Source: a virus (lineage: Duplodnaviria; Heunggongvirae; Uroviricota; Caudoviricetes). Taken from it: a stretch of 23,522 nt of DNA. This document shows positions 1 to 14,406 of this stretch, one piece after another. The notes under the pieces were generated by a model. The model was not told where the DNA came from and did no database searches. It saw nothing but the letters and a program-made list of their open reading frames with translations. The DNA is taken from IMG/VR virus record IMGVR_UViG_2703718809_000014. One strand, written 5' to 3'. The translations under genes and the position numbers were made by a program. Positions within the stretch are counted from its first letter, which is position 1, and each line of letters starts with the position of its first letter.

Positions 1-1005
1 TTAATCCCCCGTGGACACTGCGTGGACACTTACGCCACCTTTCAGCGGATTAAGGGCCACCGCATCCTGCAGGTAATCCGGTGCAAAATGCGCATATGCC
101 ATTGTTTGCTGAATGGTTGCGTGACCAAGAATCTTCTGAAGCGCAATAATGTTTCCTCCGTTCATCACAAAATGGCTGGCGAACGTATGCCGCAGCACAT
201 GTGCAGCCTGGCCTTTTGGTAAATCGGGCTTAACTCTTTTCAGCGCCAGGCAGAATTCCCGGTACTTCACCTCAAACAAGCTGCCTGTTTCTCTGGTTTT
301 GATCGCCTCACAAACTGCCTGCGAAATTGGCACTGTTCTCTTCCGGCCATTTTTGGTTTCAAGAAACGTTACACGGTTATGAACTATCTGTTCACCACGA
401 AGCTTACAAGCTTCACTCCAGCGCGCCCCTGTGCTTAAACACAAAAGCGCAACACGCCAGTAGTCGCCCTCCAGTGTATCGAGCAATAGCGCCACTTCCT
501 TCTGTGACAGGAACGCCATTTCTCGTGGAGATACATAAAGAATAGAAATTCCCCTTACTGGATGTTCTGCATCCCAAAGACCTATTTTTTTCAGCACGGT
601 AAACATTCCGGATAACCGATTCATGTACCTGTTAGCAGATGACGGTTTCAATCCTTCAGCTATCTTTTGAGAACGCCACGCGATAATTTTCAGCTTATCA
701 AGATCCACAGCCTGCATATCAGCGCCAAGCTCATTAATTATGTTGCGCAGTTGTTTTCGGTCTTCTTCCGCCTTACGCCTGTGCTGGCCGTGATACATCC
801 ACCACAACTCAAGCAAATCATTTAGCGTTCGACGATCACGGTAGCCCTGTATATATTCCCGCTTTTCAGCGTTCGCCATGATGTAGCGTTCAGTGGCCAC
901 CGCTACCGATTTTTTGTCAAATACCTTACGCACGCGCTTTCCCTTGCGTCCGTTCGGCCTGATGTCCAGCAAATAACGACCATCTTCGAGCTTCTTAATC
1001 GACAT
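1..1005 (-). CDS. int: Tyrosine integrase (P2 Int-like)
   Basis: 334-aa ORF with C-terminal catalytic region HVLRHTFASHFVMNGGNIIALQKILGHATIQQTMAYAHF (R..H..R..Y signature). Start ATG at 1005 preceded by GGAGGG; the ORF track TTG start at 1020 is less likely. Confidence 0.9.
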   Translation of the reverse strand: MSIKKLEDGRYLLDIRPNGRKGKRVRKVFDKKSVAVATERYIMANAEKREYIQGYRDRRTLNDLLELWWMYHGQHRRKAEEDRKQLRNIINELGADMQAVDLDKLKIIAWRSQKIAEGLKPSSANRYMNRLSGMFTVLKKIGLWDAEHPVRGISILYVSPREMAFLSQKEVALLLDTLEGDYWRVALLCLSTGARWSEACKLRGEQIVHNRVTFLETKNGRKRTVPISQAVCEAIKTRETGSLFEVKYREFCLALKRVKPDLPKGQAAHVLRHTFASHFVMNGGNIIALQKILGHATIQQTMAYAHFAPDYLQDAVALNPLKGGVSVHAVSTGD

Positions 1006-1101
1006 TACGAAGCCCTCCAATGAACCGCTCTACAATTTCTCCAGCCTCTTTCCAGCAATAATCAGACCAGACAAAAAGCAGGTCTAACCAGTTTTCTGGC
1101 C

Positions 1102-1535: not shown

Positions 1536-1823
1536 ATGAGCGAATCAGAGCTTGGGGGGTTCATTCAGGTAGCACCATATCCACTTGAAGCGGTGCCATA
1601 TCAACTATTCGCCAAGATGATCGGCCGCAAGGAATCCACAGTCAGAACCATGATTGACGCAGCAAAGCTACCGACAATTGACTTTGTGAAACCAGGTTCA
1701 GTAAAGACGCGTGCATCAGAAAACTGGGTATATCTGCCAGCATTTAACGAAGGCATGCGCAAAGCGTTTTTTGAGCAACCGAAAGAACGCCGCGACGCAT
1801 GGTTGTTGTGGCTGGGACTTTAG
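1536..1823 (+). CDS. cox: Cox-like excisionase / switch regulator
   Basis: 95 aa; YQLFAKMIGRKESTVRTMIDAAKLPTIDF...ENWVYLPAFNEGMRKAF...RRDAWLLWLGL parallels P2 Cox (YQEFAKLIGKSTGAVRRMIDKGKLPVID...EYWVYLPAWNNGL...IRDGWLMWLGL as recalled). Confidence 0.8.
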   Translation: MSESELGGFIQVAPYPLEAVPYQLFAKMIGRKESTVRTMIDAAKLPTIDFVKPGSVKTRASENWVYLPAFNEGMRKAFFEQPKERRDAWLLWLGL

Positions 1824-4023: not shown

Positions 4024-4286
4024 CCATTCTGGACTACATCGCTACTCATCCGGGTTGTAGCGGCGGAGAGATCGCCGCAGCACTGAATACTCCAACCACA
4101 GCCATTAATGCTGAGTTACGCCAACTTTGGCGCGGCGGCTTAGTCATCAGAACAAACCGCAGCACAGGTGGTCGCGCTCGCAAAACTGGAGGCCAGGCTT
4201 CTTACCACGTAAACCCGATGCCGTTCGGGTGTAGCAATCCACTTACTCACATGTTTAACCAGCTACTGAAGGAAGCCAGAACATGA
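4020..4286 (+). CDS. Putative winged-helix DNA-binding protein
   Basis: 88 aa; LDYIATHPGCSGGEIAAALNTPTTAINAELRQLWRGGLVIR has an HTH/wing pattern; coupled to ORFs on both sides by ATGA overlaps. Confidence 0.55.
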   Translation: MTILDYIATHPGCSGGEIAAALNTPTTAINAELRQLWRGGLVIRTNRSTGGRARKTGGQASYHVNPMPFGCSNPLTHMFNQLLKEART

Positions 4287-4582
4287 GCACCATCAACCAC
4301 CAGAAGCTACGCGAACTGGCATTTGCCCTGCAACGAATGGCAACGCCTCAAAAATTACTGGCATTTCGCGCAATGCTCTCGCCGTCTGCTGTGCTGGCAC
4401 TGCTGGATGAGCTGGAGCACGCCAGAACCACGGCTCCTGCCATTCGCCTGACACTCCATCATGAAATCGCTGATTTCTGCGCGACGTTGGAGGCACCCGG
4501 CGAACCGGAAACGCCGGAAGCAATACAGCAAGAGCTGCTGCAACGCATTGACAAGGTTTTTGATTTTTTTCTGAACCAGTAA
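4283..4582 (+). CDS. Hypothetical early protein
   Basis: 99-aa ORF, ATGA-coupled to the upstream gene. Confidence 0.6.
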   Translation: MSTINHQKLRELAFALQRMATPQKLLAFRAMLSPSAVLALLDELEHARTTAPAIRLTLHHEIADFCATLEAPGEPETPEAIQQELLQRIDKVFDFFLNQ

Positions 4583-4705
4583 GAAACCAGAACATGCACA
4601 CACAAAAAAACCGCTTGCCATGCCGCAATCGGTCAGGTTACATTTCCGCTGCACCTCATAAAACGGGTGCCGGGATTCTCAACCCGATACAGAGCAAAGC
4701 GCATA

Positions 4706-4726
4706 ACCGCGCCAGCGGTTTTTTTG
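4706..4726 (+). terminator. Terminator-like hairpin (ACCGC-GCCA-GCGGT plus T7 run)
   Basis: Short GC stem, 4-nt loop, then TTTTTTT, read directly from the sequence in the non-coding stretch. Confidence 0.4.
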
Positions 4727-4904
4727 TGCGTACTGTATTGCCACGTCTTTTTCGCGTCAGAATTATGGCGGGGCGTACGGGGCCGACTTCGGTCGGGCCG
4801 GATTCTTTGCTCTCCGGTGTTGAGAACCCTGTACGTCTCGCCACCCCGAGATTCTCAACTCTGGATGGTGAGCTATTTCTATCACCGAGCAAAGAGGCCA
4901 CACC

Positions 4905-5135
4905 ATGGCAAACCGCAAACAACAGCGCGCATACGCTGCGCGTCGTCACATCCAGACTGAAATCAACCGTAGACTTTTCCGCGCATCACGCGTCGCGCAA
5001 ATCATGCACATCAATATGCTGCATGAGCGCAGCCACGCGCTATCGAACATCTATTCCGCCTCTGTTTTCAGCTATCTGGCGGATGATCTGCGCGAGCTGC
5101 AACAACTCTTCCAGCAGCAAAACAAACTCCATTAA
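4905..5135 (+). CDS. Hypothetical early protein
   Basis: 76-aa ORF with AGAGG upstream of the ATG; basic N-terminus. Confidence 0.45.
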   Translation: MANRKQQRAYAARRHIQTEINRRLFRASRVAQIMHINMLHERSHALSNIYSASVFSYLADDLRELQQLFQQQNKLH

Positions 5136-5207
5136 TTCCTGTTCCGGGCCTTTCCTGCACCTTGCGGCGGGAGGCCTTCGCACATCTGTAGTAAAGAGAA
5201 TTGCAGC

Positions 5208-5597
5208 ATGATTGACGCTCATGACTTCACAAGATGGGTGCGCACACAGGACACCCGTCTGGCTCCCGTTCTTCAGGGATTATTTGATCTCTACATCCGT
5301 GGTCGTGACAACAGAGCACGCACCACAAAACCGGAAAATGCAGACACCCTTTATTTCACAGTAGACGACTGCTACCGCGTGGACTTCACACCACACGGGC
5401 TGGCGTTGCATTGCCTGACACCACACGGAGAATCACTGCTGGCGTATTACGACTCCCCGGCCTCCGTATTTGCGGCAATGCTGGCGCATCGCACTGCTGG
5501 CGGGTGTGCCTCGCTGAGTGAATACACCGCTGAATTTAACCGCCTTTCTGCCCTCTTCTCGCAGGAGTGGCAGCGCGTGACGGGATACCAGCCATGA
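5208..5597 (+). CDS. Hypothetical protein immediately upstream of gpA
   Basis: 129-aa ORF; its stop overlaps the gpA start (ATGA). Confidence 0.6.
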   Translation: MIDAHDFTRWVRTQDTRLAPVLQGLFDLYIRGRDNRARTTKPENADTLYFTVDDCYRVDFTPHGLALHCLTPHGESLLAYYDSPASVFAAMLAHRTAGGCASLSEYTAEFNRLSALFSQEWQRVTGYQP

Positions 5598-8434
5598 GTG
5601 AGTTTGCATGGAGCTGGAATGAACCACGGCCAGCCATTGATCCGGCCAGATTTACGGAGCACAGGCAGGAAACTGAAACCGACCTACAACGCGCCATCCG
5701 TTACTACCTTGAGGCAGACAAAAAGGCTCTGGAAGAACAGGAAGCGAAGGAGGAAGCCTTTTTCGCACAATCCACCGTGGGTAAAAAACTCATGGCATCC
5801 CTTGAGGAAGCCGGACAGCGTGAAAAGCTGGCACAAAGCATCATCAGCAAGCGTCAGGCAACAGAACAAGACCCGGTGGCCCGTGCTTTTGCCACACTGA
5901 AGGTGCTTCCCGTTTATCTGCGTGAACCTCTGAGCCGCCACCTCTCTTTCCTGCGCAAAAAACAGGAAGCCGATCGCCAGAAAGGCAAAAAGAGCTGGCA
6001 GGCTGAACGCTACGCGCGCGGAACCCTGCGCAAAATATTCGAACGCCTGGACCGCACCGATCACCGCTGGCTGACACCGGGTTATCGCTCCCTTGCCGGA
6101 CGCGAACGCCTGGACGATTTGCTTTACCTGCCGCAGCTCAACAAACACCAGATACAGACGCTGGCCACCATGACGGCGGCGATGTTCAGCAGCACCTTCG
6201 AAAAACTCTGCGATGGCTTTGGTGCGACTGATGGCGAACTGACCATGGATGTAACGCTGAAGGCGTATCAGATGCTGGCCCGCATGGCGTTACACCTGCA
6301 CGCCATGCCTCCACATTATGACGCACTGACAACAGACAAAGACCGGAGGAACGAACCGGACACGGAGCTGCTGCCGGGCGCAATCCTTCGCCTGACCTGT
6401 GCGGAATGGTGGAAACGCAAACTGTGGCTGTTACGTTGCGAGTGGAGAGAAGAACAACTCCGCGCCGCCTGTCTGGTTTCCAGAAAAACATCACCCTATC
6501 TGAGCCAGGACGCGTTAAGCGAGTTTCGCGCACAGCGCGAGAAAACACGCGATTTCCTGAAAAGTTTCATGCTGGAAAACGAAGACGGGTTCACGATTGA
6601 TCTCGAGACAGTGTATTACGCGGGAGTAAGTAACCCGGTTCACCGTAAGGCAGAAATGATGGCCACCATGAAGGGGCTGGAACTTCTGGCCGAAGCCCGT
6701 GGCGACAAAGCGGTGTTTCTGACTGTCACCTGCCCGTCAAAATACCACGCCACAACAGAGAACGGTCATCCGAATCCCAAATGGAACGGGGCCACCATGC
6801 GCGACTCCAGCGATTACCTGGTTAACACGTTTTTTGCGGCGGTCCGCAAGAAACTGAACCGCGACGGCCTGCGCTGGTATGGCATCCGCACGGTGGAGCC
6901 TCACCATGACGGCACCGTGCACTGGCATATGATGGTCTTTGCTCATCCGGAAGAAATCGACACCATTGTGTCCCACACCCGCGATATTGCCATTCAGGAA
7001 GACCGCCACGAGCTGGGCAATGATATTACTCCGCGCTTTAAGGTGGAGTATGTCGACGGCTCAAAAGGCACGCCAACCAGCTACATCGCCACCTACATCG
7101 GAAAGAACCTGGACAGCCGCGCCGTGGATGGCATCGACCCGAAAACGGGCAAGCCACGCGTTGACCACGAAACCGGAAAATCAATGGCCGAGAGCGTGGA
7201 ACGCGCCATCGGCTGGGCACGCCTTCACCGGGTCCGCCAGTTCCAGTTCTTTGGCATCCCCTCCCGTCAGGTATGGCGTGAACTCCGCCGCCTTGCCAGC
7301 CAGATGGCACGCAACCCGGAAGGCCCGCAACGGCTGAAGGATGATGCAATGGATGCGGTACTCGCTGCCGCTGATGCCGGGTGTTTTGCCACCTACATTG
7401 AGAAACAGGGCGGCGTACTTGTTCCACGCAAAGACTACCTGATTCGCACCGCCTACGACCTCGCAGATGAGCTGAACGATTACGGCGAACAGAGCGTACA
7501 GATTTACGGGATTTGGTCACCACTCATCGGGGAATCCTCCCGTGTGTGCACGCACCCGGATAACTGGAAGCTGGTAAGACGTAAACCGGAAGCGGAAGAC
7601 AGCACCCGCGAAAATGGTTTTGACCTTCAGGGCGGCCCTGCCGCCCCTTGGACTCGTGGCAATAACTGTCCCCGTGTACAGGAAACGGACAACAACGGGA
7701 CAGAACAGCCGGAAGAACGGCCAGCACCGTGGCCGCAGCTTCCTGACGGCGTTGATGTGGATGAATGGATGCGCTCACTGAAACGGCACGAACGCCGGGC
7801 GCTGATGCGTTCGCTGCGTGACAAACAGGCAAAAAACAGCAGTGATGAAATGCAGAGCTGGACACAGAGCCGCAAACAGCAGCGGCCTTTACCTGATAAC
7901 CACGAATTACTCGCTAAAGAATGGCGGGAGTCTGCCGAATCTCTCGGCCTGCATATCGGTGAACAGCAGATGCAGCACCTGTTACGGGGCGGCAGCCTGT
8001 ACGTTGACGGCAGCATCATTGCACCGCAGGGGTTTGAAATTGTACGCAAACCGGATACCCGCCCGGACAGCCGAATCACGCAGCTCTGGCAGCGCCTGAG
8101 CCGTAATCACGGCGTAAGCAGCACGGAGATCCGCCATAACCCGGTCGCCAGCTATCTGGAACAGCTGGGGGCATCAGACCCCGAAGCCGCCGCACGCCTG
8201 GCATCCACACTTCAGCAGGACCAGAACACCATGAAAACACCCGTTACCGTGCTTTCTGACATGCTGCGCGCCATCCGTGACGCAGAGCACGCACAGAGAA
8301 TCAGTGAAACCACTGAACGCGCCCGCCGCAAAGCAGATCTGCTGCGGGGTGGCCTGACCAGTGGAAACAAAAAACAGACAGAAACGGGATTCACAAATCC
8401 CGTAAATGAGCAAAAAACGCGCCGCGATATATGA
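5594..8434 (+). CDS. A: Rolling-circle replication initiator endonuclease (P2 gpA-like)
   Basis: 946 aa from ATG at 5594. Contains HUH-type motif TVHWHMMVFAHPEEID and paired catalytic tyrosines in TSYIATYIGKN (Y-x3-Y), both characteristic of P2 gpA-type Rep proteins. Confidence 0.9.
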   Translation: MSEFAWSWNEPRPAIDPARFTEHRQETETDLQRAIRYYLEADKKALEEQEAKEEAFFAQSTVGKKLMASLEEAGQREKLAQSIISKRQATEQDPVARAFATLKVLPVYLREPLSRHLSFLRKKQEADRQKGKKSWQAERYARGTLRKIFERLDRTDHRWLTPGYRSLAGRERLDDLLYLPQLNKHQIQTLATMTAAMFSSTFEKLCDGFGATDGELTMDVTLKAYQMLARMALHLHAMPPHYDALTTDKDRRNEPDTELLPGAILRLTCAEWWKRKLWLLRCEWREEQLRAACLVSRKTSPYLSQDALSEFRAQREKTRDFLKSFMLENEDGFTIDLETVYYAGVSNPVHRKAEMMATMKGLELLAEARGDKAVFLTVTCPSKYHATTENGHPNPKWNGATMRDSSDYLVNTFFAAVRKKLNRDGLRWYGIRTVEPHHDGTVHWHMMVFAHPEEIDTIVSHTRDIAIQEDRHELGNDITPRFKVEYVDGSKGTPTSYIATYIGKNLDSRAVDGIDPKTGKPRVDHETGKSMAESVERAIGWARLHRVRQFQFFGIPSRQVWRELRRLASQMARNPEGPQRLKDDAMDAVLAAADAGCFATYIEKQGGVLVPRKDYLIRTAYDLADELNDYGEQSVQIYGIWSPLIGESSRVCTHPDNWKLVRRKPEAEDSTRENGFDLQGGPAAPWTRGNNCPRVQETDNNGTEQPEERPAPWPQLPDGVDVDEWMRSLKRHERRALMRSLRDKQAKNSSDEMQSWTQSRKQQRPLPDNHELLAKEWRESAESLGLHIGEQQMQHLLRGGSLYVDGSIIAPQGFEIVRKPDTRPDSRITQLWQRLSRNHGVSSTEIRHNPVASYLEQLGASDPEAAARLASTLQQDQNTMKTPVTVLSDMLRAIRDAEHAQRISETTERARRKADLLRGGLTSGNKKQTETGFTNPVNEQKTRRDI

Positions 8435-8476
8435 AGCGCGCATAAAACAGGCAAAAACGGGATTTCAGAATCCCGT
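8384..8476. repeat. Twin 20-bp palindromes ACGGGATT-N4-AATCCCGT (8384-8403 and 8457-8476) within a roughly 35-bp direct repeat
   Basis: Read directly: ACGGGATTCACAAATCCCGT and ACGGGATTTCAGAATCCCGT, each with perfect 8-bp inverted arms; the first lies inside the gpA 3' end, the second between gpA and the parM-like gene. Confidence 0.7.
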
Positions 8477-8510
8477 AAACGATTAATTAATCAACATAAG
8501 GAAAAGCGAC

Positions 8511-9470
8511 ATGAAAATTTGTATCGACGACGGCTCCACCAACATCAAGCTGGCATGGACTGAGAACGGCGAACGCCGCAACGCCATCAGCCCGAACAGC
8601 TTCAAGTCGGAATGGTCTGCGCCGTTCGGTGGCACGCAGCCCGCGAACTACATGCTTGATGGCGTGCGCTATGGTTTTGATCCGGTCAGCGATCGCTTTG
8701 TCCAGACGACCGACACGCAATACCAGTACAGCGATGTGAATGTCATTGCCATTCATCACGCGCTGGTCAAATCAGGCATCACACCACAGGAAGTGGATGT
8801 GGTTGTCACCCTGCCACTGAGCGAGTATTTCGACACAAACGCACAGCCGGACATGGCCAACATCAACCGCAAAAAAGCGAACGTTATGCGCCCGGTGGAG
8901 TACCAGAACGGCGAAGCATTCACTATCCGTAACGTGCGGGTTATGCCTGAATCCATTCCGGCTGGCTTTAAAGCACTGGCTGACATGAGTCCGTTTGAAT
9001 CCCTGCTGATTGTGGATTTGGGCGGAACCACGCTGGATGTGGCAAAGGTTCAGGGGCAGCTGGCAGGTATCAGCCAGGTGTTTTGCGATCCACACGTAGG
9101 CGTTTCTCTGATGGCCGATGCCGTGCTGTCGGTGATGGCCACCAACGGTATGCGCACCAGTCACCACATCGCCAATACCATTATCGAACATCGCCACGAT
9201 GAAGCCTGGCTGCGCCAGCACATCCACAATGACGCGCATTACGCCAGCCTGATGGCGGTTATTCGTGAAAAGGAAGAAACACTGAAACAACGCGTGATCC
9301 GCGCGCTGGCGGGTTTTTCGGGTTACGGGCGGGTGATGGTTGTCGGTGGCGGGGCGGAGATTGTGGCACCCGCTATCCGCGAAGCCTGCGGAGTTAATGC
9401 GACTTTCATTGCGGACGGGGTGCCACAGTTTGCTCTGGTTAATGGGCTGCACGCAATGGACAAGGAGTAA
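8511..9470 (+). CDS. parM: Actin-like segregation ATPase (ParM/StbA family)
   Basis: 319 aa. N-terminus MKICIDDGSTNIKLAW...ISPNSFK...YQYSDVNVIAIHHAL, then LLIVDLGGTTLDV, FSGYGRVMVVGGGAEI and ALVNGL parallel plasmid R1 ParM (MLVFIDDGSTNIKLQW...SPNSFK...WQYSDVNVVAVHHAL...LLIIDLGGTTLDI...VMVIGGGAEL...LVNGM as recalled). RBS AAGGA upstream. Confidence 0.85.
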   Translation: MKICIDDGSTNIKLAWTENGERRNAISPNSFKSEWSAPFGGTQPANYMLDGVRYGFDPVSDRFVQTTDTQYQYSDVNVIAIHHALVKSGITPQEVDVVVTLPLSEYFDTNAQPDMANINRKKANVMRPVEYQNGEAFTIRNVRVMPESIPAGFKALADMSPFESLLIVDLGGTTLDVAKVQGQLAGISQVFCDPHVGVSLMADAVLSVMATNGMRTSHHIANTIIEHRHDEAWLRQHIHNDAHYASLMAVIREKEETLKQRVIRALAGFSGYGRVMVVGGGAEIVAPAIREACGVNATFIADGVPQFALVNGLHAMDKE

Positions 9471-9474
9471 ATCA

Positions 9475-9786
9475 ATGGCGACATCAACCAGGAGGATAAG
9501 TTTCTATCTGAAGCCCGCCGCCGTCAAGAACGAAGGCGAAGCATGCGCCTGGCTGGACAGCCTTACACCAGAAGCCCGCAAAAGCGGTCAACGCGTGGCT
9601 TTTCTGGCCGGGCTGGCACTTCTGAAAATGAATCCGGCAGAGGCTTACCGACTGGCTGCATGGGCTGACGATGAGGCGTTATCAGTGACACAAACTAGGA
9701 CGGAACGCCCCGTGTCACAGCCAGCACCAACCGCACAGATAACCAGTCAGATGGCCGGAAATATCCGGGCGTTATTTCCTGAATAA
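9475..9786 (+). CDS. parR: ParR-like small DNA-binding adaptor (putative RHH)
   Basis: 103 aa from ATG at 9475 (AAGGAG 8 nt upstream). RRISFYLKP...WLDSLTPEARKSGQRVAFLAGLALL...IRALFPE parallels R1 ParR (RRTIAFKLNP...TLDSIPQGERSRLNRAALTAGLALY...LRSLFPKE as recalled). Sits directly after parM as in parMR operons. Confidence 0.65.
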   Translation: MATSTRRISFYLKPAAVKNEGEACAWLDSLTPEARKSGQRVAFLAGLALLKMNPAEAYRLAAWADDEALSVTQTRTERPVSQPAPTAQITSQMAGNIRALFPE

Positions 9787-9793
9787 CACAACG

Positions 9794-9813
9794 TCAGGGC
9801 GAGTTCGCCCTGA
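9794..9813 (+). terminator. Hairpin/palindrome TCAGGGCGA-GT-TCGCCCTGA between ParR-like gene and first Ea22-like gene
   Basis: Perfect 9-bp inverted arms read from the sequence; no U-tract follows, so terminator function is uncertain (could be a binding site). Confidence 0.3.
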
Positions 9814-9849
9814 TCCCCACCTCAGAACATAAACAAGGAGACCGACTTA

Positions 9850-10497
9850 ATGAGCAAAATTAACTATCAGGCACTGCGTGAGATAGCAAAACTGGCAACA
9901 CAGGGCGAATGGGTCGCATTCATTTCGCCGGGCACTGATACATATGCGGTGCATACGCCGGGGGATGAACGTTGCGGAGACATTATCAAATGGCCAGGCT
10001 TTGACGACCAGAAAAATGCAGAGAACAACGCAGAATTTATCGCAGCTTTCAACCCTGAAGTAGTACAGGCGTTGTTGGATGAACGGGAAGCCCAAAGTAA
10101 ACGCATTGCAGAGCTGGAGACTAATCTGGTGACACTCGCGGCGGAGAATGAGGCGTTGAAGTCGAACCTGATTTACTGGGGCGGCGAAGATTCAGGGGCT
10201 GTCAGAAGTCCGCTTGATTACGCCCGTGCAGCCGGGCTGGAATCTGGAGAGGAGTTTGAGATGCAAGTGGCAGCCAGAATGCCGAACCTGACTTATCGCG
10301 TTGTGTCGAATTCCCGATTCAGAACAACAATAGAACTGGTTGACGGATCATTGCCGGAAACCCCAGCCACCAATGCTTTTCTGGCTGAAGTACGAGCACA
10401 AGGCGTGGAGATGTTTGCTGAGTGCGCATACACACTTGAACATCATGATCACGCAGTAGCTTTTGCCGCCGAACTACGTAAAGGAGATAAACAGTGA
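9850..10497 (+). CDS. Ead/Ea22-like family protein with coiled-coil segment (paralog 1)
   Basis: 215 aa; N-terminus MSKINYQALREIAKLATQGEW matches the conserved Ea22-like N-terminal motif as recalled; predicted coiled coil KRIAELETNLVTLAAENEALKSNL; AAGGAG RBS. Confidence 0.7.
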   Translation: MSKINYQALREIAKLATQGEWVAFISPGTDTYAVHTPGDERCGDIIKWPGFDDQKNAENNAEFIAAFNPEVVQALLDEREAQSKRIAELETNLVTLAAENEALKSNLIYWGGEDSGAVRSPLDYARAAGLESGEEFEMQVAARMPNLTYRVVSNSRFRTTIELVDGSLPETPATNAFLAEVRAQGVEMFAECAYTLEHHDHAVAFAAELRKGDKQ

Positions 10498-11096
10498 ACA
10501 AAATTGACTATCAGGCACTGCGTGAGGCAGCACAAAACTATCAGTCGACGCTGGCGTGGTATGAGGCCATCCCGGATAGCCCATGCTCTGAGGTTGATTG
10601 TGATAGAGTTTTGGCTGCGTTTAAGTGTCAAATTCGTCATCGGGAAATGGATATTATCGCCGATCTGCTGGATGAACTGGACGAAAAACAGCATTACATC
10701 AAACTCCGCGACCAGGAAAACGAGGAAATTGCGATAACGATAGGGAAGCTGCGTATTGAGCTGGAAGAAGCAAAATCAAAACTCAACGAGCAGCGTGAGT
10801 ATTACAAGAGTGTTATCGCCGATGGAAGTAATCGCATTGCAGAACTGGAAGAGATCGCCACTGACTACGCACTGAAATTTCAGAAAGCACAGGATGCACT
10901 AAAGCATGCTGTGTTAATGCGTAACAAATCGCTTTCTTTTGAGAAAGCGGTGCGTCACCCAACCTCAGAGTGTGGCACATTTACAGTGGAGATCCCGAAT
11001 CCAAAGGAGTATTTCATTAACGGCGTATTCCAGCCTTTGCGATACGAACGGGATGTTGAACGAGCCATCATAAAGGCAGGTGGAAAAGTCTCGTGA
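10494..11096 (+). CDS. Ead/Ea22-like family protein with long coiled coil (paralog 2)
   Basis: 200 aa; GTG start at 10494 overlapping the upstream stop (GTGA), AAGGAG 8 nt upstream; N-terminus MNKIDYQALREAA shared with paralog 1; extended heptad-like region LRIELEEAKSKLNEQREYYK...IAELEEIATDYALKFQKAQDALK. Confidence 0.7.
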   Translation: MNKIDYQALREAAQNYQSTLAWYEAIPDSPCSEVDCDRVLAAFKCQIRHREMDIIADLLDELDEKQHYIKLRDQENEEIAITIGKLRIELEEAKSKLNEQREYYKSVIADGSNRIAELEEIATDYALKFQKAQDALKHAVLMRNKSLSFEKAVRHPTSECGTFTVEIPNPKEYFINGVFQPLRYERDVERAIIKAGGKVS

Positions 11097-11436
11097 CAGG
11101 AGACAGAAGAGAAGCCGCTCCACGGCAAACCGGGGCGATAATCACACATCGCCCTGCTGCACAATAGTGCACAAATTTGCACAATTTTTTTGAACGACTT
11201 TTTGCCCTTCCGGCCCCCGTGGCGGCTGGATCCGTCAAGGATCCGTGCGTGCACAAAAAAACGCGTTTTTTCTGCGCGCAGGTGACGGGGGAACAGCCCG
11301 CGTTTCAGGGGGTAAATAGCACTCCCTGAACGATGTCGCAGAGATACAACAGAATGGCTGTATTTCTCACGCTGAGCGTGAAAAAGACGTGAGGGCTTTT
11401 GATTTGATGGGGTGGCAGATAAGGCCGTCAAAATCG

Positions 11437-11456
11437 CACTGAGGCGGCGAAAACAT
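11437..11456. other. Candidate cos (cohesive end) site
   Basis: cactGAGGCGGCGAAAACAt resembles the P2 cohesive-end sequence as I recall it (GGCGAGGCGGGGAAAGCAC); lies about 150 bp beyond the portal gene stop, as in P2. Recollection-based. Confidence 0.3.
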
Positions 11457-11558
11457 GCAGTCAGCGCAGTGGGATTGCGTAAGAGTCTGACCGTCGATGA
11501 TGGCAATAAGCAGGAAAGCGTCGTGAAATTATCTGATTGATACAGGAGCTGGAGAGTC

Positions 11559-11608: not shown

Positions 11609-12655
11609 TCAGGATGTGGGCTGGGTGTCTAACAGTGCGTAAGGGTTAAAGCGGATCACCTCTTCGCCAAGCCAGTCATTGATGTGCTTCATGGCCTCCA
11701 TGACGGGCATCAGCTCGTTAATTGCGTAAACCCGCGCGGCCTTCTCCACATCACCAAACGCACTTTTTTCGCCCGGCATCGCCCCCATCAGTTGCGGCGG
11801 AACGCGGTGCGCAGCCAGCACATCATCACGGGATGCCGCCTTAACATTCATGAACTCATCCTTTGCGGTGATCTGCTGGAACGGCAAAATTTGCACCCCC
11901 TCTTTGCCCCCGTTGGGCGCATGAATGAGCACGTTTTTAAACGCACCACCACCACGCGCACCCTGTAGCGTTTCTTTCAGGGAGTCCATGCTTTCGCGGT
12001 TTACCTGCGCTGCACCGATGTAGATGATGCACCCGGCGTGGGATCCATTGTCGTAATACAGTTTTCTGAACATGTCCGCCGAATGAGACAGGCTGGCCGA
12101 GAGTAATGCGCCAAGATATTCCGGCATGCCGTAAATTTCCTGGTTAATGTCCGGATTCATCAGGTGGCACACTTTGCCAGGGCGAAACTGAAACGCGTCT
12201 TTGCCATCCTGCACATACCACCATGATTCAAGATCGCTTCCGCGTCGCATGTATTTCGCCAGGGCGTGCCGTAATTTAAGTGGTTCGCCGAGCATATTGC
12301 TTCGAAGCTCAAGGAATGCGTTACCGAACACAAACCAGTCCAGCGCCAGCGCCGAGAAATCCTGCCGGGAAAGCAGCGGGTGCGGGATGTAGCAACCGAG
12401 TAATACATTGCGCTTAAAGTAAAGCGCAGACTGATGCCAGGACGTTTGCCGGGCAGCTCTTGCCAGACCGTACCAGTCTACCGGGGTTTCATACCACCGC
12501 CCGTTATCAGCACAGTACATATTGTCCAGCAGGTCATGCCCGGTCAGGCGATAAGGACCATCAAATGTGAATGCACTGAGCGATGATTCTTTCCTGAGCG
12601 CATCAGCAAGATCAATGCGTGAACTCATGCGCACTTTTTTATTTTTTCTGCTCAT
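11609..12655 (-). CDS. Q: Portal protein (P2 gpQ-like)
   Basis: 348 aa, leftward, immediately downstream of and start/stop-overlapping the terminase large subunit gene, as P2 Q. Confidence 0.85.
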   Translation of the reverse strand: MSRKNKKVRMSSRIDLADALRKESSLSAFTFDGPYRLTGHDLLDNMYCADNGRWYETPVDWYGLARAARQTSWHQSALYFKRNVLLGCYIPHPLLSRQDFSALALDWFVFGNAFLELRSNMLGEPLKLRHALAKYMRRGSDLESWWYVQDGKDAFQFRPGKVCHLMNPDINQEIYGMPEYLGALLSASLSHSADMFRKLYYDNGSHAGCIIYIGAAQVNRESMDSLKETLQGARGGGAFKNVLIHAPNGGKEGVQILPFQQITAKDEFMNVKAASRDDVLAAHRVPPQLMGAMPGEKSAFGDVEKAARVYAINELMPVMEAMKHINDWLGEEVIRFNPYALLDTQPTS

Positions 12656-14406
12656 CAGAACTCCATAACCGTGAAACGCTCGTTTTCTCCTTCGCCGCCA
12701 ATTGGTTCGTTAATGACAGCAAGCATGGTTGCCCACGCAAGGTCGCCGTGGCTGATCCCCCTCGCGCGGTCCGTTTCGTAAGTGATAAAGCCGCCCGGTG
12801 TTTTCACCTTACGCACGGCGTTAAAGGCCGCGACCAGTTCGCGTTCGGCGCGATCGTATTCCCACCGCCCGGCACGCATTATTTGCAGCATTTTCAGTAC
12901 CAGCGACCGTTTTGATGACAGTGTGAAGGTGTACGGAATAGCAGCAGGGAAAAACCGTTTCACTATCTGATAAACAGCCTCCCCGTTCCCGCCCGTCACA
13001 TCAATACCGATGTGTTCCACGTTGTAGCGACACGTGAACTCTTCAATGACTCTGGCCTGTTCTTCAAACTCCAGCCCCTGAACGCGTCGCGTCTCCACCG
13101 TTCGAAAACGGCCACCAGGAACAGCCGGGGGAACCACCACGGACACAGCGCCGCTGTCGCCGTTGCCACTGCTGCCGTTTGCGTCATACCCAATCCATAC
13201 CGGACGATTTCCCATCGGGCGGGGAGCAAAAGGTTTCCAGTCTTTCCAGTCGTCGTATCCGTCAACGCCGCAGCCAATCAGGATGTTCAGGTTAAATGCC
13301 GATTCCCCTTCGCGGACAAACTCACACATGTAGAGATTGAGGAACTCGTCTTCGGTGTTTTCATCACGGATTTCGTCAATATCGGTGTGTTTCCAGCCGT
13401 GATTAACCACATCTTCCAGCGTGACAATCTGCCGCCATGTCCGGTCAGGGCAGATAAGTCCGTTATGCAGCGTTTTCCAGTCCACAGAAAAACGCTGGCG
13501 TTTATGCGAGGCCTTTTTCTCGTTCCAGCGGTCGCCGTTCCAGTAGGCGTATGCCTCGTGCGTTTCGGTGGATGGCGTGGAGAAGTAGGTGCGCCGCAGT
13601 CCGCTGAGGGTTGCCATAGCGCCAGCCACCTTGCGCAGTTCAGCAAAGCGACTGACCCAGAAAAATTCATCAAAATAAAAATTGCCCGTATAGGACTGTG
13701 CCGACGCAGCAGAAGTGCCGAGAAAATGCAGCTCTGCGCCGTTGGAGAGTATGATTTTATCGCCCCCTTTCAGCTCCACATCAACTTCAGCCGCGGCCTT
13801 CTGAATAATGCTTTTAAACTGGAACGCCTGACGACGCGACGCAGACAAAAAAATCTGGTTACGCTGGTAAGGTTGCGCCACATCGTCACGCAGCGCCATC
13901 AGCAGCGCTTCCTGTGCAAAATACCAGGTCGCCCCAATCTGTCGGGATTTCAGGATCATCCTGTTACGTATCCCGGCTTCCCTGCAAAGGGTCAGGGAGT
14001 CAAACCAGCCCCGCTGATGCCACTCCAGCCTGCTGATGATTTTTTCCCGCAGTGCGGCAATCTGTTCCGGCGTGAAATGATTTTTGAGTTTTTTCGCCCG
14101 GCCTTTCTTTCCTGTGGCCGTCGCATCCGGCTGGCCATCATGCAGTTTTTTAAGCTGCCGGGTCAGCAGGTCTATTTCCTTGAAGTCACCACCTGTTTTA
14201 TTCTGTTTTTCAGTGAGCTGGATGAGGCGCGCATCGATGGACTGCGTGACACGCTGCACGGGTGGCGTTTCATCCCACTGGTCGCGTTTTTTCCACGCAT
14301 AAATCGTGTTCGGGTTTATTCCCATCAGACGTGATATTTCTGCGGGCGGATAACCCTGCCAGTAAAGTTGCCGCGCACGCTGGCGCACAAAAGCGTCCTG
14401 AATCAT
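12655..14406 (-). CDS. P: Terminase large (ATPase) subunit (P2 gpP-like)
   Basis: 583 aa, leftward, divergent from the O-N-M operon as in P2; N-terminal HTH-like segment AEISRLMGINPNTIYAWKKRDQWDE. Confidence 0.9.
   Translation of the reverse strand: MIQDAFVRQRARQLYWQGYPPAEISRLMGINPNTIYAWKKRDQWDETPPVQRVTQSIDARLIQLTEKQNKTGGDFKEIDLLTRQLKKLHDGQPDATATGKKGRAKKLKNHFTPEQIAALREKIISRLEWHQRGWFDSLTLCREAGIRNRMILKSRQIGATWYFAQEALLMALRDDVAQPYQRNQIFLSASRRQAFQFKSIIQKAAAEVDVELKGGDKIILSNGAELHFLGTSAASAQSYTGNFYFDEFFWVSRFAELRKVAGAMATLSGLRRTYFSTPSTETHEAYAYWNGDRWNEKKASHKRQRFSVDWKTLHNGLICPDRTWRQIVTLEDVVNHGWKHTDIDEIRDENTEDEFLNLYMCEFVREGESAFNLNILIGCGVDGYDDWKDWKPFAPRPMGNRPVWIGYDANGSSGNGDSGAVSVVVPPAVPGGRFRTVETRRVQGLEFEEQARVIEEFTCRYNVEHIGIDVTGGNGEAVYQIVKRFFPAAIPYTFTLSSKRSLVLKMLQIMRAGRWEYDRAERELVAAFNAVRKVKTPGGFITYETDRARGISHGDLAWATMLAVINEPIGGEGENERFTVMEF

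Follow-up and report, generated by a model that had tools for sequence, protein, structure and literature searches.

The window analyzed here, 23,522 nucleotides of DNA from the virus record IMGVR_UViG_2703718809_000014 (Caudoviricetes), belongs to a P88-like temperate phage of the genus Xuanwuvirus in the P2-like family Peduoviridae. Judged by its sequence, the segment from 8511 to 9786 is a complete R1-type pair of genes for the actin-like ATPase ParM and its adaptor ParR, with the nucleotide-binding motifs intact. We think it rather probable that this cassette is a functional type II (ParMRC) DNA segregation machine, part of the conserved backbone of P88-like phages, which acts on free circular phage DNA. 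That the pair exists and what its proteins are was already known from annotation: GenBank and RefSeq automatically label the two genes "plasmid segregation protein ParM" and "partition protein," and PHROGs has families for both proteins, with ParR assigned to phrog_2515 ("partition protein"). What is new is that the phage ParMs form a single clade, that the cassette holds a position in the phage backbone, that selection acts on it domain by domain, and that a conserved two-palindrome site with the spacing of plasmid parC is associated with it. Our full-text literature search found no functional or experimental study of ParMR in P2-like phages.

The ParM and ParR proteins

The two open reading frames (ORFs), of 319 and 103 aa, lie exactly where an earlier note on this DNA, made from its letters alone, had placed a ParM-ParR pair, and both match Pfam families. 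ParM matches StbA_N (E = 1.8e-82) and the ParM C-terminal domain (E = 4.3e-68), and its residues 2 to 315 align with crystallized R1 ParM (1mwk; E = 3.9e-92) at ∼50% identity over the full length; identity to the ParM of an IncL/M plasmid is 52%. In the 1mwk alignment, the segments IDDGSTNIKL, VMPESIPAG, DLGGTTLD, and GGGAE are identical in the phage and R1 proteins. Following the R1 ParM literature, we take IDDGSTNIKL to be the phosphate 1, DLGGTTLD the phosphate 2, and GGGAE the adenosine motif; the glutamate in VMPESIPAG is presumably the catalytic E148 of R1 ParM. The note's statement that the actin phosphate-binding motifs appear intact is borne out by this identity.

The parR gene starts at ATG 9475 (not 9476), 4 nt past the stop codon of parM, whose 3′ end contains the AAGGAG site for ribosome binding. 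Its Pfam family, PF10784, is presumably that of the StbB/ParR proteins. At its N terminus the protein has a putative ribbon-helix-helix domain, made up of the strand RRISFYLKP and helices; a variable linker leads from there to a C-terminal tail (NIRALFPE) that is conserved. When we aligned the window's ParR with those of four other phage lineages and of IncF and IncL/M plasmids, the invariant residues were R6, F10, Y11, and P14 in the strand; R35, R40, G46, and A48 in the helix; and N96, L100, and F101 in the tail, whose motif N-x-x-x-L-F(P), predicted to be helical, is shared without change by phage and plasmid ParRs. A single-sequence search of ParR against the PDB returned only noise; a profile of 30 phage ParRs gave the ParR of pB171 (2jd3, "StbB protein") as its best PDB match, at a marginal E of 0.012. 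The AlphaFold monomer is of low confidence (predicted local distance difference test score, 54), with residues 1 to 12 unstructured, helices at 14 to 29 and 32 to 52, a disordered linker, and a helix at 86 to 100; the modeled secondary structure fits a ribbon-helix-helix protein that would fold only as a dimer. A tblastn search with phage ParR found no relative on genuine plasmids; judged by its sequence, the phage protein is a lineage of its own.

Several parR alleles occur beside parM genes that are otherwise 99% identical. Between alleles the first ∼18 and last ∼8 residues are kept, the helices are ∼60% identical, and variation is extreme in the linker. The genomes lose homology to each other at window positions ∼9529, ∼9620, 9786, and 9814; recombination therefore exchanges the 3′ part of parR along with the downstream cargo.

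Both genes are under purifying selection. We computed pN/pS (the ratio of nonsynonymous to synonymous variation per site, pooled pairwise) from 67 distinct parM sequences and, for parR, from 41 distinct sequences in the allele class to which the window belongs. The value for parM was 0.05; that for parR was 0.23 overall, but 0.13 for residues 1 to 66, 0.61 for the linker (67 to 90), and 0.07 for the tail (91 to 103), so that constraint lies on the putative DNA-binding part and on the tail and is relaxed in the linker. Such a regional pattern would be expected if a flexible linker connected a domain that binds DNA with a short peptide that binds a partner.

Conservation of the cassette among P2-like phages

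We assign the window to Xuanwuvirus because of its P2-type gene set and order, its similarity to P88, and its Pfam matches to Phage_GPA, Phage_Cox, and integrase. Positions 8300 to 9900 are 94 to 97% identical in DNA to P88, P884B11, PhiR44_2, Citrobacter phage phiSM, and others; across P88, P884B11, phiSM, 520873, and other Xuanwuvirus members at this level of identity the gene order is the same, and we found no difference of substance. The P88 record runs from integrase, C repressor, Cox, and early genes through gpA, "plasmid segregation protein ParM," and "partition protein" to several small genes, followed by portal and terminase on the opposite strand and then P2-type head and tail genes. 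The P2-type order that marks a Xuanwuvirus carrier, with scaffold, capsid, and small terminase after portal and terminase, was also found.

parM is present in 1303 of 5426 complete Escherichia coli genomes (∼24%), at 1443 places. The 3′ part of this type of gpA occurs at 1777 places in the same genomes; thus, most prophages of this type retain parM. Of the 82 related loci compared, two came from GenBank/PLSDB and the other 80 from IMG/VR; every one has the full 319-aa parM ORF, and nearly all have a parR of 103 to 104 aa. The nearest ParMs outside Escherichia are those of Plesiomonas (63% identity), Hafnia (62%), Serratia (58%), and Enterobacter (54%), and the P2-like prophages of these four genera keep the order gpA, parM, parR, variable genes, portal. 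In a neighbor-joining tree of 108 ParMs, calculated without support values, the phage proteins form one clade adjoining the IncL/M-type plasmid ParMs, outside which fall those of R1, IncF, an integrative and conjugative element (ICE) of Dickeya, and an integrated F-like element of Mangrovibacter. The sequence 3′ of parR, on the other hand, varies even among close relatives, homology being lost at ∼9786 or 9814, and in the other genera this region holds HicAB, a KAP NTPase, or a transposase. Because synteny is conserved, the ParMs form a single clade, and parM is retained while the downstream genes turn over, the cassette behaves, by these sequence comparisons, as part of the phage backbone that borders a cargo region and not as cargo itself.

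The earlier note had held such a module to be unexpected in an integrating phage. The integrase ORF (1-1020, minus strand) is indeed intact, with both integrase domains, but the premise that the module is an unexpected singularity is not supported: the cassette is found in about 24% of complete E. coli genomes and in four further genera, has already been annotated, and has precedents in other integrating elements, namely, AlpAC of the prophage CGP3 (PMC4446434) and srpMRC of the SXT/R391 ICEs (PMC4489591).

R1-type parM-parR pairs also lie in a Dickeya chromosome (locus L090), within an ICE-like region with TraG_N, TraU, and an integrase, and in a Mangrovibacter chromosome (locus L091), within an integrated F-like plasmid segment with Rep3, ParA/ParB-like proteins, and umuDC; integrated elements other than phages carry this ParM-ParR family too. 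The 272-kb Salmonella record NZ_CP110658.1, described as an IncHI2A plasmid, contains the core chromosomal genes ffh, rpsP, trmD, and pheA; misassembly or fusion of a plasmid with the chromosome is the probable cause. The record also includes a P88-like prophage with parMR and sopE, so that a sopE-carrying P2-like phage has the cassette.

Table 1. Coordinates of the cassette, its candidate sites, and the landmark genes of the carrier phage in the window
Feature	Position	Strand	Remarks
Tyrosine integrase	1-1020	-	Pfam Int_N and Phage_integrase; integrase in the P88 annotation
Cox	1536-1823	+	Pfam Phage_Cox
gpA, rolling-circle replication endonuclease	5567-8434	+	Pfam Phage_GPA, E = 4.4e-131; directly upstream of parM on the same strand
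Repeat block 1 (parC-like candidate)	8368-8409		42-nt direct repeat; palindrome ACGGGATTCACAAATCCCGT at 8384-8403; within the last gpA codons
Repeat block 2 (parC-like candidate)	8441-8482		42-nt direct repeat; palindrome ACGGGATTTCAGAATCCCGT at 8457-8476; gpA-parM intergenic
parM, actin-like (ASKHA) ATPase, 319 aa	8511-9470	+	ATG start; Pfam and PDB matches
parR, adaptor, 103 aa	9475-9786	+	Pfam PF10784 Plasmid_stab_B, E = 1.6e-24
GC-rich hairpin TCAGGGCGAGTTCGCCCTGA	9794-9813		Directly 3′ of the parR stop; conserved cassette ends and variable cargo begins
Portal	11609-12655	-	ORF matched to the P88 layout
Large terminase	12655-14406	-	ORF matched to the P88 layout

As for the neighboring genes, the gpA ORF encodes 955 aa when read from its first start codon, a GTG (∼940 aa in the P88 annotation). 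The Pfam GPA domain spans only residues 194 to 518, and ∼430 C-terminal residues have no family match. The protein is 785 to 907 aa long across related prophages, and the last gpA codons overlap repeat block 1. Downstream of parR are two adjacent, overlapping Ead/Ea22-like genes (9850-10497 and 10494-11096), the second of which has a weak PADLOC match to PbeC (E = 4e-4) that is probably noise; a third ORF with weak Ead/Ea22 similarity (4283-4582) is located in the early region. Between the Ead-like genes and the portal gene, a minus-strand ORF of 183 aa (10955-11506) has no Pfam, PHROG, or PADLOC match; an Ogr/Delta gene occupies the equivalent position in the Plesiomonas and Hafnia relatives.

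A candidate centromere and the expression of the cassette

The twin palindromes that the earlier note had reported upstream of parM are present, one in each of two 42-nt direct repeats. Each is a 20-bp palindrome, ACGGGATT-N4-AATCCCGT, and their start-to-start distance is 73 bp. By chance, 0.12 matches to the palindrome would be expected in the window, and at least two matches occurred in 1 of 100 shuffles. Phages of E. coli, Plesiomonas, and Hafnia all have two YGGGA...TCCCR inverted repeats at this location, in which CGGG and CCCG lie 14 bp apart, with a block spacing of 72 to 73 bp (approximately seven helical turns). The sequence between the conserved repeats diverges and is coding in some lineages and noncoding in others, and block 1 of Hafnia, TGGG...CCCA, shows a symmetric change in both arms. 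Downstream of block 2, just before the ribosome-binding site, ATTAATCAA is conserved across the three genera. The parC regions of IncL/M and IncF plasmids likewise consist of two repeat blocks 72 to 73 bp apart, but these are built of 10- to 11-bp iterons around a clear promoter, unlike the phage site. On its sequence features, the pair of palindromes is a good candidate for the parC-like site of ParR. Among E. coli copies, the ParR allele class does not covary with the palindrome variant; that the variants are common to the allele classes agrees with the invariance of the N-terminal ParR strand.

The Serratia and Enterobacter phages retain a GGCAAAAACGGGA-like element. Upstream of parM, their prophages (locus L088, 7887-7940, and the matching region of locus L089) have, in place of the twin short palindromes, inverted arms of ∼14 to 20 bp, ∼26 bp apart (GAAATAGAAAAATG / CATTTTTCTATTTC), which may represent a different centromere design within the same phage ParM clade.

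At our scan threshold, no consensus σ70 promoter was found in 8200-10000, and no plus-strand terminator-like site was detected between gpA and parM. Because the genes lie on the same strand with no such terminator between them and no strong promoter of their own, parMR would most likely, if tentatively, be expressed together with the early and replication genes, including gpA. Reading by eye, we noted one weak promoter candidate (TTCAGA, 16 nt, ATTAAT), whose −35 element may overlap block 2; ATTAATCAA could be a weak −10 element with its −35 inside block 2. ParR may possibly modulate parMR expression. Farther upstream, an intrinsic-terminator-like hairpin on the plus strand (4705-4720; AACCGCGCCAGCGGTT followed by TTTTTGTG) lies inside an ORF with no family match (4594-5211). 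Promoter-like sites flank this hairpin at 4615-4644 and 4738-4766, and its surroundings may form a small independent transcription unit in the early region.

Possible roles of the cassette

The cassette resembles plasmid ParMRC systems, those of R1/NR1 (StbA/StbB/parC), IncF, and IncL/M, in more than its ParM, with ∼50% full-length identity and identical ATP-binding motifs: ParR belongs to the same Pfam family and has the N-terminal strand and the N-x-x-x-L-F tail in common with its plasmid counterparts, and the order of (candidate) site, parM, and parR, with two upstream repeat blocks ∼73 bp apart, is also the same. It differs in being carried by an integrating P2-like phage rather than a plasmid, in that block 1 overlaps the end of gpA, in a ParR with no plasmid relative by tblastn, and, compared with IncF and IncL/M, in a site of two 20-bp palindromes instead of 10- to 11-bp direct iterons around a strong promoter.

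In the mechanism that we propose, ParR would bind as a dimer to the pair of GGGA...TCCC palindromes that precede parM, and, by analogy with R1, the conserved C-terminal ParR tail would capture the ends of ATP-driven ParM filaments, which would push apart DNA molecules bearing parC. Whereas our comparisons establish what the parts are, how well they are conserved, and that they are under selection, we infer the DNA binding, the timing of expression, and the benefit. Since parMR is likely expressed with the early and replication genes, the machine would act on phage genomes that are circular and outside the chromosome, as they are following infection or excision while gpA replicates them, rather than on the integrated prophage. 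In P2, the products of replication by gpA are monomeric circles of double-stranded DNA, which resemble plasmids as substrates. The phage might gain in one or both of two ways. Replicating circles could be distributed for efficient replication and packaging, as with AlpAC in CGP3, or both daughter cells could inherit a copy when the excised phage has neither killed the cell nor reintegrated, as with SrpMRC. Stabilization of the excised episome and positioning of replicating DNA, both listed in the earlier note, are still the best candidate roles.

AlpAC is the closest functional precedent. In the Corynebacterium glutamicum prophage CGP3, AlpC and AlpA, whose genes are induced early, tether the circular DNA of the phage to actin-like filaments; efficient replication requires them (PMC4446434). 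As here, an integrated prophage encodes an actin-like ATPase and an adaptor, which in CGP3 is cotranscribed and binds DNA, and AlpA binds a site (alpS) upstream of its own operon, which is also where the candidate site of the phage cassette is found (PMC4446434, PMC5539076). By description, the Alp proteins differ in that they represent another actin-like family, from a different phylum of hosts, with an AlpA that does not belong to the Pfam StbB-type ParRs, whereas the P88-type ParM is a close relative of R1 ParM and no distant Alp. The SXT/R391 elements offer a second parallel, a type II partition system that stabilizes the excised, plasmid-like form of a normally chromosomal element: SrpMRC of ICE R391 lowers loss of the excised form, which replicates by rolling circle, and its centromere has only four repeats (PMC4489591). 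In that case, the carrier is a conjugative element and not a phage, and by that paper's account SrpM and SrpR have no more than a distant relationship to ParM and ParR of R1 (PMC4489591).

Several points weigh against a segregation machine for free phage DNA. ParR binding, filament formation, and a phenotype are predictions. The candidate centromere comprises only four half-sites, far fewer than the ten 11-bp iterons of R1 parC, and the twin-palindrome form is not conserved in the Serratia and Enterobacter phages, which instead have a long-range inverted repeat of ∼20 bp. Both palindromes resemble intrinsic terminators on the minus strand, and the segment folds strongly as RNA (z = −6.4), so it may serve another purpose. 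The argument for cotranscription with gpA, that prediction found no signals against it, is weak, and because of the terminator-like hairpin at 4705-4720, the early region does not look like a simple single operon. To our knowledge, P2 itself has no such cassette and is nonetheless viable; therefore, the benefit may be small. An RNA element seems the less likely explanation of the palindromes: since only the GGG/CCC cores and the spacing persist across genera, a protein site fits better than a stable hairpin, although the folding score and the resemblance to minus-strand terminators speak for RNA. The palindrome segment has no match in Rfam, and of the changes seen between E. coli copies, some are wobble compatible and others break pairs.

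An alternative is that the P88-like phage is a facultative plasmid prophage, which would persist as a low-copy circle in a carrier or pseudolysogenic state and be partitioned by ParMRC as in phage-plasmids. We consider this quite unlikely. It draws on PLSDB record NZ_CP148288.1, a circle of 34,461 bp from a cat isolate that contains a whole P88-like genome; over the 12 kb compared, it matches with 100% identity an integrated prophage of a human isolate (chromosome NZ_CP148378.1), so that, at the assembly level, the same phage exists in both states. The two strains share a naming scheme and are probably from the same study. However, this record is the sole phage-sized circle in PLSDB and may simply be an assembly of phage DNA that had been induced or had excised, while the other PLSDB matches are large records with chromosomal genes or a linear fragment. 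Nearly all parM places in the complete E. coli genomes (1441/1443) are chromosomal, the integrase is intact, gpA is of the rolling-circle type, and no plasmid-type theta replicon was found. For phage-plasmids proper (P1 and N15 type), the defining feature is autonomous maintenance, typically without integration; with an intact integrase and a chromosomal parM, we rejected this class. A hitherto unrecognized facultative episomal phase of P88-like phages, in which, following infection or excision, a low-copy circle replicated by gpA is inherited over generations and partitioned by ParMRC through a minimal two-palindrome centromere in partial overlap with the 3′ end of gpA, has in our estimate only a slim chance of being real; if true, it would mean an integrating prophage/phage-plasmid hybrid in about a quarter of E. 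coli genomes.

It is also unlikely, in our judgment, that the cassette serves the lysogen, whether as a host fitness factor, by interference with incoming ParMRC plasmids or related phages, or as cargo of a defense hotspot. Its location suits such a role, as it borders the variable region between gpA and portal, where relatives carry HicAB, a KAP NTPase, and other cargo and where P2 carries old and tin. In addition, a paper on Citrobacter rodentium prophages counts the homologue in phiSM among putative fitness factors (PMC6456863). Yet neither ParM nor ParR matches any PADLOC defense model, the cassette is conserved while the neighboring cargo turns over, and it has no consensus promoter of its own for expression in the lysogen. 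Cross-interference with plasmids is improbable because genuine plasmids yielded no relative of phage ParR and the candidate site is unlike plasmid iterons. Antiphage defense cargo like that of the P2 variable region was rejected as a class, given the PADLOC result and a cassette that stays constant where the genes downstream vary. We find it hardly credible that the cassette is a decaying relic of plasmid-phage recombination without present function. Plasmid ancestry is plausible, the sister clade being of the IncL/M type, and P2 is, as far as we know, able to do without the cassette, but strong, domain-specific purifying selection contradicts a relic, as do an intact parM in 82/82 related loci, catalytic motifs that are all intact, and synteny kept across five genera at 54 to 63% protein identity.

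The cassette occurs in about one-fourth of complete E. coli genomes, including those of Shiga toxin-producing E. coli and ST131, and in P2-like prophages of several other Enterobacterales. If it has no measurable effect, it is an ordinary accessory module that has been correctly annotated. If excised circles are indeed positioned or partitioned by it, the idea of partition in the free phase, as known from AlpAC and SrpMRC, would extend to a classic and genetically tractable family of E. coli phages. Such a function could explain how spontaneous excision escapes curing, and mechanistic studies would gain, in the site upstream of parM, an R1-type centromere that is minimal by nature.

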